A stretch of DNA of 64,000 nucleotides from the NCBI GenBank assembly GCA_964561705.1, contig CAZLQJ010000001.1:45915-109914 (forward strand), given 5' to 3'. The translations under genes were made by a program, and so were the position numbers. The stretch comes from an uncultured Lachnoclostridium sp. (GTDB lineage: Bacteria; Bacillota; Clostridia; Lachnospirales; Lachnospiraceae). Below, piece after piece: positions 21,800 through 25,498 of the stretch; within the stretch, counting starts at the first letter, position 1; the number at the start of each line of letters is the position of its first letter. The notes under the pieces were generated by a model. It saw only the letters and a list, made by a program, of their open reading frames with translations, had not been told where the DNA came from and made no database searches.

Positions 21800-24700
21800 C
21801 TAAATCAATCCTCTGCGGATCCTTTCCATACGAAGCTGTTCCTGAAACTTTTTCATGACCTGATCATTTTCATTTGCGGCTTCCTTTCTGACTTCTTTTT
21901 TTTGCAGATGTTGTTCAAATTCCTTCTGCCGCTCTTCAAGTTTTTGCAGCTGCCTTTTTTGCTGTTCCGATTGCTGTTCCAGTCTTGTCAGCTGCTGTTC
22001 CTGTTTTTCATGAAACTCTTCAGTTTTTTCTACACGATTTTGAAAATATTCAAATCTTTCTGAAACCTGGTTCTTCTTTTCCGGTACAATGATCTCCCTA
22101 CTTTCCATCAGCTGTCTGATCTCCGGGCGTTCCGACAATTGTTTCCACGTGACAACCTCTTCCGTCTTCACTTTTCTCTCCACTTCCGGCTCTGCTTCCA
22201 ACTCCCGGATCAGATTATTTTGCAGAAGATATTCTGTCATTTTTGAATCCTGCATCTTACGCTCCACAATCTGTTCTTCCGACATCTCATGTTCCACGAT
22301 CCGCTCTTCCAGCGTCCCCCGTTCCACAATTGTTTCACTTTGCAGGTCTGCAAACGTACTCAAAACTTCCTGCTCCCACGATATCACTTCGTTGTGATTT
22401 GATACGGAATGAACGATTTCCATCATCTGTTGTGTTTGTCGATCTTTGATAATCGTTCTTCCCGAAAAAACATTCCGAAGGGTTTCCCTTAGGAACTTTG
22501 AAATTTCCGGAAGTTCCTTTACCAACATTTCCGTATCTATTTTTTCCAATATATGACCAATCACTGTAGACAATTCTTTTGAAATCTGAACATTTTGGGA
22601 CAATCGTTCCCGATGCTCCAGGTTTCGTTCCACTTCACTTTCCAGTATAGTCAATTCTTCTGTTGACAATTTTTCAACTTCCTTTTGCATGATCTCAAAA
22701 ATCTTTGATTCACTATGCAAATAAACCTTCGTGTCTGTGTGATTTTCTCCGACAACCACATCCCTGTCAGTCATCTGCATTCGCTCTGTGAAAATATTTT
22801 TGTCAGTAAATGCGTTTCTATCGATGATTACGTTTCTGTCAACAAGCACATTTCTATCAGTGATTACGTTTCTGTCAGTAAGTGCATTTCTATCGGTGAT
22901 TTCATTTCTATCGCTGTTCACTCTTTTTTCGATAGCCTGCCAGATGAATTCACAGAATTTTTCTGAAAAATGTGGCAGTTCCTTGAAAAGATCCCCCCTG
23001 TCAATATTTTCCAGCAGTTGTTTTGTTAATTCTTCTGTTAATTTTTTTGTTTCTTTTAATGTGTTTTTTATTTCTTTTAAAACATTTTCATTTCTAACAA
23101 GCTGAGCACTTTTCAAATGAATTTCCGGAGAAACTTCTGTATAAATTTTAGAAGGATCTCTATACTCTGTCTCTTTTTCAAAAAGTTCTCTTTCCAATCT
23201 TTGAACATCTTTTTCTGATAACTGTTCCACATGCTGCTGCAAACTTCGATAGATCAATGATTTTTCAAAAACCTTAGCATTTTCGGATTTATTTTCATAG
23301 GATCCCCGCTCATCCAATACAGTTCTTATAATGTCCTGGATTTCCAGACGAAGCTCCGGAAATTCTTCTAATAAAGTTTCTATATCCATATGCCGTAAAA
23401 CCCGACCTACCAGTACCGATGTTATCTGCTGTTCCTGCTGCATCGGCAATTCTAAAAAAGTCTGAAGCTCTGATACTTCCGGTGTTATCCGAAACTGCAG
23501 TAATTCTGATATAATCTGAAGTTCTGATTCTTCTGACTGCATCCAAAATTGTGGTAATTCTGTTATGATCTGTAGTTTTGATAATTCCGGTAATATCCGG
23601 AACTGTGGTAACTCTGTTATGATCTGTAGTTTTGATAATTCTCTTAATAAAACTTCCCGGTCTGTCCGACTCAACAACTTCTGAAGAAAAACATTAATCA
23701 TTTTATTTTTCTCTTCAAGATGATCAAATACAATCTTTTCATCCTTAGAAATTTGAGTCTCAGAGGATCCGTTTTCGTCCAAAACTTCCTTCCAAAGTTC
23801 TGTAAGTTCTTCCACTGAAAAATTCAACATCTCATCATAAAACATTTGAAAAATCAATGAGTTCTCATGCACCACACGCTCATCAATTTGATTGCTTACC
23901 ATTTTGCGAATAAGCTGCTCGCATCCTGACGTTTCACTTTCAAGGAAGCTGTGCTCCACTGTAACCTGCTCATGAGATACTTCACCAGACACTTTATGAA
24001 ATACCTCTCTGATCATTTCCTTCAACCGGATGTTTAACTGAGAAGATACCTGCTTTAAACTTTGCAATTCCGTTTCAACAACTTCTTTTTGCAATTCTGT
24101 CTGTCCGTTTTGAAAAAACGTTCTTTGGAGGAACTCCATTTGAATGTTTTTTCGCTCAGATTCTGATAGAAGTTCCAGTTCCTCATTAATCAGTTGCTGC
24201 AGCTTTGTTTCTTTTTGAAGCTGATGTTGCAGCTTTGTTTCCTGTTGAAAATATGTTTTCCGGCTTTCCTGTTTTAATACCTGGTGCAGGATTTCATAAA
24301 ATTTCTCTCGTACTGCCGGAAGTTCCCAAATCAGTGAATCTGACTCTGTTTCTATCAATAATTTATGGATGAATGCTGCGGAAGTTTCTGTTAGGACAGA
24401 TTCATAGGTAAGTTCCTGATCTGTTTCTAAATCTTCTCCTTGCAGCTGTTCATTTTCAATCTTTATCTGCTCTCTATACAGATTTTCTGCCTGTTCTAAT
24501 ACTTGTCGGCAGAAATATAACTTTTCTAACCGTTCTACAATCTCTTTTTGCAATTGTTCCTGTCTTACCAGGATTTCTTTTTTTGTTTTCTGTTTTAAAA
24601 TTGTCACCTGCTGCTCTAAAATCGCAAGTTCCCTGCAAAATTCCTGCCATACAGAGAAACCTTCTATATTCTCTATATTTTCTATATTTTCTATATTTTC

Positions 24701-25498
24701 TGTACTTTCTATATTTTCCGTACTTTTGGTTTGCTGAACCTCTTCTGTATGTTCTAAGCTTTCCGTCCTCCAGACATCTTCGATACGCTCCATGCTCTTG
24801 ATGTCCTTTGTGCTCTCGATGCTCTCTGTACACTCTCTTCGCTGTACATTTTCGATGCGTTCTATCTCCTCTGCTTTTTGAAGTTTTTCTGCGCTCTCGA
24901 TGCGCTGTACGTTTTCAACACGTTCTGCACCTTCTATTCTTTGAACCTTTTCTGTATGCTCAACGATTTCATTTTTTTCACAATTTTCCAGCTGATGCAT
25001 ACTTTCTGTATTCACAACATGTGCTGTACGTTGGTTCTCCTCCAGATTCTGCACCTTTTCCACATCTTTTCTTTCAAATAACCTACACTGGCGCTGTTCC
25101 AGTTCCCGATATTCCTTAATCAGCATATCTAACTGACTAACCAACTGGGTTTCACGGGATTTTTCCCGAAGCATTTCCACCGCTCCTGGCAAAACAGTCT
25201 CCCGCAGGATTTTTTGATAGAATTCTCTATTATTTTCTTCTCTGGTAACCAGTTTTACGGTTTCTTTTTCACGAAGTATATACTCTCTTACACGTTCTTC
25301 TTCCGGCTCTTTTCCTATTTCTTCCTCCTCCGGCACAGCTGGCTGCAGATACACGAAAGAGGCAGGATCAAACATATAAGCTTCTCCCTGCCCACTCTTT
25401 TCAAAAATTTCTTTCACAAACAGCGACGTTCTGCTGATAGATTGCGGAAGTTCTGTTCGTTTTCCCAATAGATACTTTTTTCCTATCTGCACAAGCAT
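21800..25498 (-). CDS. Giant E/Q/K-rich, highly repetitive coiled-coil protein in the tape-measure position (Afp14 analogue candidate)
   Basis: 1232 aa, between the second tube gene and the LysM initiator. It has several nested repeat families (see the repeat features) and no TM segment. Confidence 0.5.
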   Translation of the reverse strand: MLVQIGKKYLLGKRTELPQSISRTSLFVKEIFEKSGQGEAYMFDPASFVYLQPAVPEEEEIGKEPEEERVREYILREKETVKLVTREENNREFYQKILRETVLPGAVEMLREKSRETQLVSQLDMLIKEYRELEQRQCRLFERKDVEKVQNLEENQRTAHVVNTESMHQLENCEKNEIVEHTEKVQRIEGAERVENVQRIESAEKLQKAEEIERIENVQRRECTESIESTKDIKSMERIEDVWRTESLEHTEEVQQTKSTENIESTENIENIENIENIEGFSVWQEFCRELAILEQQVTILKQKTKKEILVRQEQLQKEIVERLEKLYFCRQVLEQAENLYREQIKIENEQLQGEDLETDQELTYESVLTETSAAFIHKLLIETESDSLIWELPAVREKFYEILHQVLKQESRKTYFQQETKLQHQLQKETKLQQLINEELELLSESERKNIQMEFLQRTFFQNGQTELQKEVVETELQSLKQVSSQLNIRLKEMIREVFHKVSGEVSHEQVTVEHSFLESETSGCEQLIRKMVSNQIDERVVHENSLIFQMFYDEMLNFSVEELTELWKEVLDENGSSETQISKDEKIVFDHLEEKNKMINVFLQKLLSRTDREVLLRELSKLQIITELPQFRILPELSKLQIITELPQFWMQSEESELQIISELLQFRITPEVSELQTFLELPMQQEQQITSVLVGRVLRHMDIETLLEEFPELRLEIQDIIRTVLDERGSYENKSENAKVFEKSLIYRSLQQHVEQLSEKDVQRLERELFEKETEYRDPSKIYTEVSPEIHLKSAQLVRNENVLKEIKNTLKETKKLTEELTKQLLENIDRGDLFKELPHFSEKFCEFIWQAIEKRVNSDRNEITDRNALTDRNVITDRNVLVDRNVIIDRNAFTDKNIFTERMQMTDRDVVVGENHTDTKVYLHSESKIFEIMQKEVEKLSTEELTILESEVERNLEHRERLSQNVQISKELSTVIGHILEKIDTEMLVKELPEISKFLRETLRNVFSGRTIIKDRQTQQMMEIVHSVSNHNEVISWEQEVLSTFADLQSETIVERGTLEERIVEHEMSEEQIVERKMQDSKMTEYLLQNNLIRELEAEPEVERKVKTEEVVTWKQLSERPEIRQLMESREIIVPEKKNQVSERFEYFQNRVEKTEEFHEKQEQQLTRLEQQSEQQKRQLQKLEERQKEFEQHLQKKEVRKEAANENDQVMKKFQEQLRMERIRRGLI
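22760..22920 (-). repeat. 18-nt (6-aa) in-frame tandem repeat, about 8 copies
   Basis: Encodes NSDRNEITDRNALTDRNVITDRNVLVDRNVIIDRNAFTDKNIFTERMQMTDRDV. Confidence 0.85.
23441..23646 (-). repeat. 54-nt (18-aa) in-frame tandem repeat, about 4 copies
   Basis: Near-identical DNA copies gtggtaa(t/c)tctgttatgatctgtagttttgataattc start at 23551 and 23605. They encode LSKLQIITELPQFRILPE / LSKLQIITELPQFWMQSE / SELQIISELLQFRITPEV / SELQTFLELPMQ. Confidence 0.9.
24662..24724 (-). repeat. 9-nt/18-nt in-frame microsatellite-like repeat
   Basis: ttctatatt units encode STENIESTENIENIENIENIEG. The flanking 24775-24965 carries looser (V/I)(Q/E)RIE-type repeats. Confidence 0.9.

Follow-up and report, generated by a model that had tools for sequence, protein, structure and literature searches.

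How particles of the lineage II type are measured to length is an open question in the study of extracellular contractile injection systems (eCIS), because tape measures of the Afp14 type are generally absent from lineage II eCIS (Chen et al. 2019; PMC6899500) and no typical tape measure was found in the contractile injection system (CIS) clusters of Streptomyces (Casu et al. 2023). A stretch of 64,000 nt from an uncultured Lachnoclostridium sp. (contig CAZLQJ010000001.1), referred to below as the window, brings this question down to a single gene. The window holds a complete eCIS cluster on its minus strand, and in this cluster an open reading frame (ORF) of 1232 aa, here called the slot gene, lies between the second tube gene (tube-2) and the gene of a CIS_tube/LysM tube initiator. 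From this position, a first-pass annotation of the same DNA had taken its product for a tape-measure protein (TMP). Is the slot protein the ruler of the particle, and if so, does it resemble the rulers already known?

The answer that we favour, with a probability of about 0.6, is that the slot protein is the tape measure, namely the ruler in the tube lumen, of a Lachnospiraceae eCIS and represents a new family. The annotated role is partly supported: the gene keeps its slot across relatives, it has a tail assembly chaperone (TAC)-like partner predicted to be made in two forms, and its protein has conserved ends around a middle of variable length. On the other side, no homology to Afp14 or other TMPs was found in our searches, a clade lacks the slot gene, and the TAC-like gene of the window is broken. 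Tape measures as such are well known; what is new is the family, its extreme repeat-driven plasticity, a predicted frameshift chaperone of the phage type in eCIS, and a clade in which the gene has been naturally lost.

Conserved ends and a repeat-built middle of variable length

The frame itself proved to be as annotated (Table 1), with an AGGAGG Shine-Dalgarno sequence directly 5' of the ATG; a GTG at 25492, two codons inside the gene, is the start picked by gene callers elsewhere and gives 1230 aa. Compared with a related strain, the ratio of nonsynonymous to synonymous substitution rates (dN/dS) is 0.19-0.29, against 0.04 for the sheath and tube-2 genes, which indicates that the slot gene is functional and under purifying selection but evolves faster than those two. 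Its product is indeed rich in E, Q and K (E 17.9%, Q 8.5%, K 7.4%, with R at 7.0%), has a pI of 4.95 and a net charge of -80, and contains no transmembrane or hydrophobic segment, the maximum Kyte-Doolittle window of 19 residues reaching only 0.89.

Relatives of the cluster were all found in Lachnospiraceae-type genomes and in gut or rumen-type metagenome contigs, and a scan of species-representative genomes gave as its only match an Acetatifactor metagenome-assembled genome (MAG), L001 (labels L### denote related eCIS contigs or genomes, and P#### proteins of the representative database). Synteny located a filled slot in L003 and L004 (876 and 873 aa), L006 (1283 aa), and L009 and L010 (1215 aa), where the gene lies, as in the window, between the tube/chaperone genes and the initiator/hub genes. 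The representative search yielded further homologues, i.e. P0121 (1166 aa), P0125 (1170 aa), P0126 (774 aa), P0127 (793 aa) and P0136 (1190 aa). Run exhaustively over 1.84 billion representatives, it gave 53 matches with about 10 true slot homologues of 774-1190 aa among them, and the locus was retrieved for one, P0123, which is identical with L004 and sits in the slot. Most of the 53 matches were set aside as compositional: they covered only repeats (E-rich, LSKLQ or TDRN), in proteins that are unrelated and for the most part look eukaryotic (such as P0129 and P0134). Members of the family in the slot thus range from 774 to 1283 aa, and all of them are acidic and without transmembrane segments.

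What these proteins share is their two ends. At the N-terminus about 130 residues are conserved, with 45% identity between the window and L003 (E 1e-31), and the C-terminal region, again of about 130 residues, ends in LRxERxRRGL, of which L..E..RRG is the invariant part. Hidden Markov models (HMMs) of the two ends recovered slot genes only, with E-values of 2e-66 to 3e-64 for the N-terminal and 1e-37 to 4e-27 for the C-terminal model; in the outgroup L009 the C-terminus is retained and the N-terminus has diverged. The middles, by contrast, cannot be aligned between lineages, and each lineage has tandem repeats of its own: 55-aa units repeated about 12 times in L006, 58-aa units in P0125, 152/177-aa units in P0136, and multiples of 6 aa in the window.

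Neither the whole protein nor its ends led to a known family. Searches of Pfam, NCBIfam, PHROG and the PDB sequences matched the slot protein to no family; the phage TMP profiles of Pfam and PHROGs gave 0 families at E <= 0.01 for the slot protein or its L003 homologue, and the L009 homologue had one sub-threshold chance match per library, neither of them a TMP family. PDB sequence searches with the slot protein and both terminal profiles returned chance or generic coiled-coil matches only, and a full-length word-indexed homology search returned nothing, low-complexity words having probably interfered. Judged by these searches, the slot protein appears to belong to a previously undescribed sequence family.

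Within the window protein, every kind of small repeat that had been noticed at first sight is present, that is, the ENI, TDRN, 18-aa and VQRIE types, the last with 5 copies. Tandem Repeats Finder detects the ENI, TDRNxx and LSKLQIITELPQF arrays at the DNA level, and the residue autocorrelation peaks at lags 6, 12, 18, 24 and 30 (z 5-6). Copies 1 and 2 of LSKLQIITELPQF are identical at 44 of 54 nt and nearly identical across the first 39 nt. A larger degenerate module of 29 aa had also been described, with at least five copies, and for four of these the claim can be upheld: each finds its best ungapped BLOSUM62 matches in the other three (scores 36-50, weakest pair 22), where the maxima of 200 shuffles averaged 16-24, with 95th percentiles of 24-33. 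A fifth candidate near residue 608 scores 22-26, which is the level of the null and so indistinguishable from chance.

Repeats of this kind were expected to change the length of the gene by slippage or recombination, and the comparison of strains directly bears this out, since differences of an ENI unit and in-frame indels within repeats are seen between them. Contigs L016 and L023 (run SRR19576313) differ from the window by 2 single-nucleotide polymorphisms in 10.4 kb, plus one ENI unit and one 4-nt indel in the TAC-like gene; L016 is without one 9-nt ENI unit of the window. In L015 and L002 (SRR25400508), the tube protein is identical to that of the window and the slot protein about 87% identical, and the slot allele, which encodes about 1268 aa, is set apart by six in-frame indels (+14, +31, +4, -3, -6 and -4 aa) that all fall in repeats. 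The slot gene is a recurrent breakpoint of short-read metagenome assemblies (L005, L007, L008, L015, L016, L023): that of SRR19576313 stops inside the LSKLQ (LSKLQIITELPQF) array, and contigs L005, L007 and L008 also terminate inside the gene. The numbers of repeat copies read from public assemblies, and perhaps from that of the window, should therefore be taken with caution.

Variation of this sort has a precedent in the TMPs of lactococcal phage TP901-1 and of mycobacteriophages, in which in-frame duplication or loss of internal repeats changes tail length. The tandem-duplicated TMPs of phages, however, have larger units with regularly spaced aromatics, whereas the repeats of the slot family span 3-177 residues, are lineage-specific and have no common period, being 55 versus 58 aa even in sister lineages. 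On the periods found (6, 55, 58 and 152/177 aa), we rejected the idea that all of them follow one common quantum, for instance a multiple of the tube ring.

The TAC-like partner and its candidate frameshift

A TAC with a -1 frameshift is a hallmark companion of tape-measure genes. In the G/GT proteins of lambda and E/E+E' of P2, the frameshift chaperones known from Xu, Hendrix and Duda, the substrate is the tape measure. The gene that follows the tube gene in our cluster matches the PHROG family 'tail assembly chaperone' (E 9e-7 in the window, 3e-7 in L003), and a frame with the DUF6760 domain overlaps it at -1 (Table 1). The candidate slippery heptamer near its 3' end is nucleotide-identical in six loci (the window, L003, L006, L009, L015 and L016), all of which have DUF6760 in the -1 frame, and the conservation of the -1-frame peptide (KFYGSRGLTTYPAEKIYEE) starts exactly at this heptamer. 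The hairpin behind it is closed by a U-A pair in the window and by an A-U pair in L003. No canonical start of DUF6760 was seen near the equivalent position in the window, L003 or L006, and in L009 the gene caller chose a TTG. DUF6760 probably forms the C-terminal extension of a predicted frameshift fusion with the TAC-like protein. Because the TAC-like gene carries, in relatives, a predicted frameshift like that of lambda G/GT, the slot protein gains support as a tape measure.

The arrangement shares with the lambda gpH-G/GT and P2 systems the match to a phage TAC family and a canonical X_XXY_YYZ site with a hairpin; it differs from them in that a second tube gene stands between the chaperone and the slot gene, and in that the extension is DUF6760, with no recognised T domain. 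The gene order in P2 and R-type pyocins is sheath, tube, E/E+E', TMP, U, X-LysM and D. The order around the slot gene, which we found as first read (tube, TAC-like gene, tube-2, slot ORF, LysM initiator), is comparable to that around P2 gpT and the R-type pyocin TMP in its succession of sheath, tube, -1 frameshift chaperone, TMP and LysM/hub. A literature search found no paper describing a -1 frameshift TAC-DUF6760 arrangement in eCIS, and the predicted fusion would tie eCIS assembly closer to the assembly of phage tails.

Ruler, passenger or accessory protein

The most informative relatives are those without the slot gene. In L001, L011/L019 and L013/L020 the cluster is syntenic but tube-2 abuts the initiator gene; the proteins of L001 are 52-88% identical to those of the window cluster. 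Across the whole of these clusters the HMMs detect neither slot terminus, no further large helical ORF is seen, and the other structural genes are all intact. The TAC-like gene and DUF6760 are also gone from L001 and L011, while L013 has kept the TAC-like gene with the heptamer changed to C_AAT_TTT and the -1 frame closed. Neighbour joining of five baseplate proteins, concatenated to 1904 columns and with the slot-bearing L009 as outgroup, nests the slot-less clade (100% bootstrap) in slot-bearing lineages (94%), and hence the absence of the slot gene is a secondary loss. Since the chaperone is lost in the same clade, the slot gene and the chaperone seem to work together.

The same clade also heads the points that weigh against a ruler. 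The machine persists without the slot gene, which is accordingly not present in all functional relatives, and this suggests either that assembly is possible without the slot protein or that the ruler is supplied from elsewhere. None of the searches run linked the slot protein to a known TMP, by sequence or by fold. The protein is strongly acidic and hydrophilic throughout, unlike many phage TMPs, which carry hydrophobic segments. The TAC-like gene of the window is broken by a 4-nt deletion (CTAT) at about 26278 relative to L016 and all homologues, so that its ORF ends early (…YTMDLA, then SRICISV and a stop) and the frameshift site downstream no longer lies in its frame; either the assembly is in error here or the chaperone has been inactivated in this particular strain. 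Finally, about 40-45% of the residues modelled by AlphaFold2 (AF2), including all micro-repeat arrays, are coil, in a model with a predicted local distance difference test (pLDDT) score of 34.6, and the chain may thus not be a uniform helix, which makes any figure in nm per residue uncertain.

That AF2 model, made for residues 34-1232 without an alignment, consists of helix and coil only, and its pLDDT is too low for fold claims. The N-terminal region was modelled better (pLDDT 64.6), with a short helix, a beta hairpin and two long helices, the helices at pLDDT 80-90; Foldseek with this model returned nothing at E < 3. The description of the protein as a coiled coil can be kept for the C-terminal 60-90 residues only: in a crude heptad test the signal rises above shuffles at residues 472-501 and 1143-1200 and nowhere else, so that most of the protein lacks a heptad periodicity. 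A profile of the C-terminus gives weak matches to tropomyosin and Spc25 (E 0.02-0.09). The models show neither a globular or enzymatic domain nor a transmembrane segment, which would be in keeping with a tape measure.

Nor do the rulers already described for eCIS offer a close relative. Alg14 of the AlgoCIS of Algoriphagus machipongonensis was shown to be a ruler, as internal duplications and deletions of helices change particle length and cargo load (preprint 10.64898/2026.05.27.728243). It is like the slot protein in being an eCIS protein with termini of mixed structure and a helix-rich, variable middle. The slot protein is, however, 2.3 times longer than the 526 aa of Alg14, far more acidic, built with tandem micro-repeats and encoded alongside a TAC-like gene; no family or library search grouped the two, which are set apart here on that ground rather than by direct sequence comparison. 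With Afp14/Pvc14 of lineage I eCIS the likeness is one of proposed role. Truncations of Afp14 are reported to change the length of Afp (Rybakova 2015). The gene afp14 sits after the fibre gene/afp13 and before the ATPase/afp15, whereas the slot gene lies between tube-2 and the Afp7-like gene, and searches of Pfam, NCBIfam and PHROG, which work at the level of profiles rather than of alignment to the Afp14 sequence, did not place it in the Afp14/Pvc14 family.

Could the slot protein travel with the particle without setting its length, as a lumen-loaded or hub-associated protein that is ejected, be it a pilot, a plug or an effector-like passenger? In favour of this, a sister clade does without the gene while the rest of its machine is retained, and rapid evolution and hypervariability are traits that the slot protein has in common with many delivered proteins. 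In Streptomyces davawensis, moreover, the largest ORF directly before the baseplate genes encodes Tme, a TMP-related endonuclease effector that binds the spike and the tube initiator (PMC11126660). Tme resembles the slot protein further in standing just upstream of the initiator/baseplate genes and in its coiled-coil and disordered content, but its DUF4157 domain, its predicted transmembrane helices and its C-terminal nuclease (PMC11126660) all lack a counterpart in the slot protein. No catalytic, toxin or DUF4157/eCIS_core domain was found in the slot protein, a dedicated toxin, the ADP-ribosyltransferase, is already encoded in the cluster, conservation lies at both ends and not in any middle domain, and the gene occurs and is lost together with the TAC-type chaperone. 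We regard a passenger role as unlikely.

Still less probable is a role outside the particle, in which the slot protein would be a cytoplasmic scaffold, tether or assembly factor that anchors or spaces the CIS. A long, acidic, low-complexity protein, part helical and part disordered and with no known domain, would suit such a role, and some Gram-positive CIS reside in the cytoplasm and depend on accessory proteins (PMC10066040; 10.1101/2024.06.25.600559). Yet the slot gene lies inside the tube-initiator block and not at the periphery of the cluster, its product has no membrane or cell-wall binding domain, and it is linked to the TAC-like chaperone. That the ORF is a decaying or spurious simple-repeat frame without function, as the empty family and word-indexed searches might suggest, is effectively refuted by its strong Shine-Dalgarno site, its dN/dS, the retention of both termini across lineages at 40-60% protein divergence, and the fact that all indels between strains are in frame.

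If the slot protein is the tape measure, assembly may be pictured as follows. The conserved C-terminal helix and the terminal RRGL would dock in the hub, formed by the CIS_tube/LysM initiator, the gpD-like hub and the spike, while the TAC-like chaperone and its -1 frameshift TAC-DUF6760 fusion would keep the chain extended, as lambda G/GT and P2 E/E+E' do. Tube-2 and then tube would polymerise around the chain in the lumen up to the conserved N-terminal region, where a Pvc16-type cap would end growth. The non-conserved repeat middle would act as a spacer whose number of residues sets the number of tube and sheath rings, and particle length would be proportional to protein length; replication slippage and unequal recombination in the repeats would then shift the ring number between strains.

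The length so predicted depends on the conversion. The earlier figure of about 185 nm does follow from the rule of 1.5 Å per residue, but the only eCIS calibration that we found gives about 265-280 nm: AlgoCIS, 120.6 nm long with its 526-aa TMP, corresponds to 0.229 nm per residue, and the slope across CIS is 0.2156 (10.64898/2026.05.27.728243). At 1.5 Å, 0.2156 and 0.229 nm per residue, respectively, the 1232 aa of the slot protein would give 185, 266 and 282 nm, the family minimum of 774 aa 116, 167 and 177 nm, and the family maximum of 1283 aa 192, 277 and 294 nm, a conversion that is uncertain because the repeat arrays are non-helical. For comparison, the CIS of Streptomyces is about 230 nm long; a ruler role would make the slot-gene particles long for eCIS.

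A wider picture can be put forward tentatively: a slippage-prone ruler, served by a frameshift chaperone of the phage G/GT type, might serve the eCIS of gut Lachnospiraceae as an evolvable dial of particle length, and with it of reach and cargo capacity, over a ~1.7-fold range, with particles of 185-~280 nm and next to a clade that builds independently of a ruler. If true, the particles would be among the longest eCIS, a G/GT-type frameshift chaperone not so far reported for eCIS would be at work in them, and the clade without ruler and chaperone would imply that a closed-ended contractile particle can be built independently of a ruler. The locus thus offers a candidate family together with a natural allelic series (774-1283 aa; strain alleles of 1229, 1232 and ~1268 aa) and a natural knockout clade, by which the ruler hypothesis is directly testable with electron microscopy. 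Since engineered TMP length sets the length and cargo load of eCIS, a naturally modular, repeat-built ruler would also be of interest for the design of delivery particles.

Feature coordinates and neighbouring genes

Table 1. Positions in the window of the slot gene, its internal features and other genes of the cluster
Feature	Position	Strand	Remarks
Slot gene, candidate tape measure	21800..25498	minus	1232 aa, ATG start
Conserved N-terminal region, residues 1-~135	25094..25498	minus	LPxTxGKTSLFVKxIxExYGQGxxYxFDPASxVYL ... REF..RI...LPG
Acidic micro-repeat region (VQRIE, IEST, ENI units), residues ~150-283	24650..25051	minus	includes polymorphic ENI array
ENI array, 5 tandem copies, 9-nt period	24662-24724	minus	
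29-aa degenerate module copy 1, residues 380-408	24275..24361	minus	
LSKLQIITELPQF-type (LSKLQ) 18-aa units, 4 copies, 54-nt period, residues 621-692	23423..23638	minus	
29-aa degenerate module copy 2, residues 700-728	23315..23401	minus	
29-aa degenerate module copy 3, residues 828-856	22931..23017	minus	
(T/S/V/I)D(R/K)N-x-x (TDRNxx) hexapeptides, ~8-9 copies, 18-nt period, residues 862-921	22736..22915	minus	
29-aa degenerate module copy 4, residues 983-1011	22466..22552	minus	
Conserved C-terminal region, residues ~1103-1232	21803..22192	minus	TWxQLxERPEIRQLxESREIxVP, long heptad-like helix, terminal motif
CIS_tube + LysM tube initiator (Afp7-like)	21082..21789	minus	directly downstream of slot gene
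Tube-2 (gp19/Afp5-like, PF06841)	25527..25973	minus	directly upstream of slot gene
DUF6760 frame (PF20546, E 6e-16)	25986..26222	minus	-1 relative to TAC-like gene
Conserved hairpin UGCCGGG...UCCGGCA	26148..26174	minus	5 nt past heptamer
Candidate -1 slippery heptamer A_AAT_TTT	26180..26186	minus	3' end of TAC-like gene
TAC-like gene	26162..26529	minus	phrog_508; 123 aa in relatives, C-terminal CPHCG zinc ribbon
Tube (gp19/Afp1-like, PF06841)	26620..27045	minus	
255-aa orphan	29009-29776	minus	rich in E, K, R
ADP-ribosyltransferase protein, 656 aa	29803-31773	minus	PF03496, E 1e-30
AAA+ ATPase, 593 aa	31794-33575	minus	
AAA+ ATPase, 722 aa	36918-39086	minus	
719-aa orphan	39100-41259	minus	upstream cluster edge
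MORN-repeat protein, 504 aa	8419-9933	minus	N-terminal hydrophobic segment, ~12 MORN repeats
Overlong ORF	6658-7155	minus	overlaps neighbour genes
Overlong ORF	7824-8552	minus	overlaps neighbour genes

In the order of transcription, the cluster starts with two AAA+ ATPases, LuxR-type and SARP/BTAD-type regulators and the ADP-ribosyltransferase toxin, followed by sheath, tube, the TAC-like gene with DUF6760, tube-2, the slot gene and the CIS_tube/LysM initiator. After the initiator come a Phage_GPD-like hub, an OB-fold spike (base_V), gp25, two Baseplate_J proteins, Tail_P2_I and a CIS13-like protein, and the cluster ends with a MORN-repeat protein, a Pvc16 cap and a DUF4280 (PAAR-like) protein.

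None of the other ORFs of the cluster has the look of a TMP. A protein of 578 aa was set aside as CIS13-like with Ig-like C-terminal features; those of 296, 504 (MORN), 260, 329 and 459 aa are all also kept in the slot-less clade; and the two orphans of 255 and 719 aa are without a match in any family library. None of these proteins shows TMP-like features, and a ruler among them is improbable.

At the upstream edge, the regulators between the two ATPase genes are of the SARP/BTAD-STAND and LuxR types. The 656-aa protein just upstream of the sheath block carries its exoenzyme domain at the C-terminus and is the likely payload of the eCIS. The equivalent place is taken by an eCIS_core-WHH nuclease with SUKH immunity in L001, by a 635-aa eCIS_core protein in L013 and by a 433-aa protein, judged by eye to be ADP-ribosyltransferase-like, in L011. 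Where the 255-aa orphan stands in the window, just before the sheath gene, L003 and L004 have proteins of 269-286 aa.

The MORN protein, encoded after the CIS13-like/296-aa genes and before the Pvc16 cap, is kept in relatives in split or fused form (250+342 aa or 563 aa) and may be a component for target binding or anchoring. Two ORFs at this end of the cluster are overlong (Table 1); in the identical contig L021, the DUF4280 (PAAR-like) protein has 128 aa and the Pvc16 cap 189 aa.

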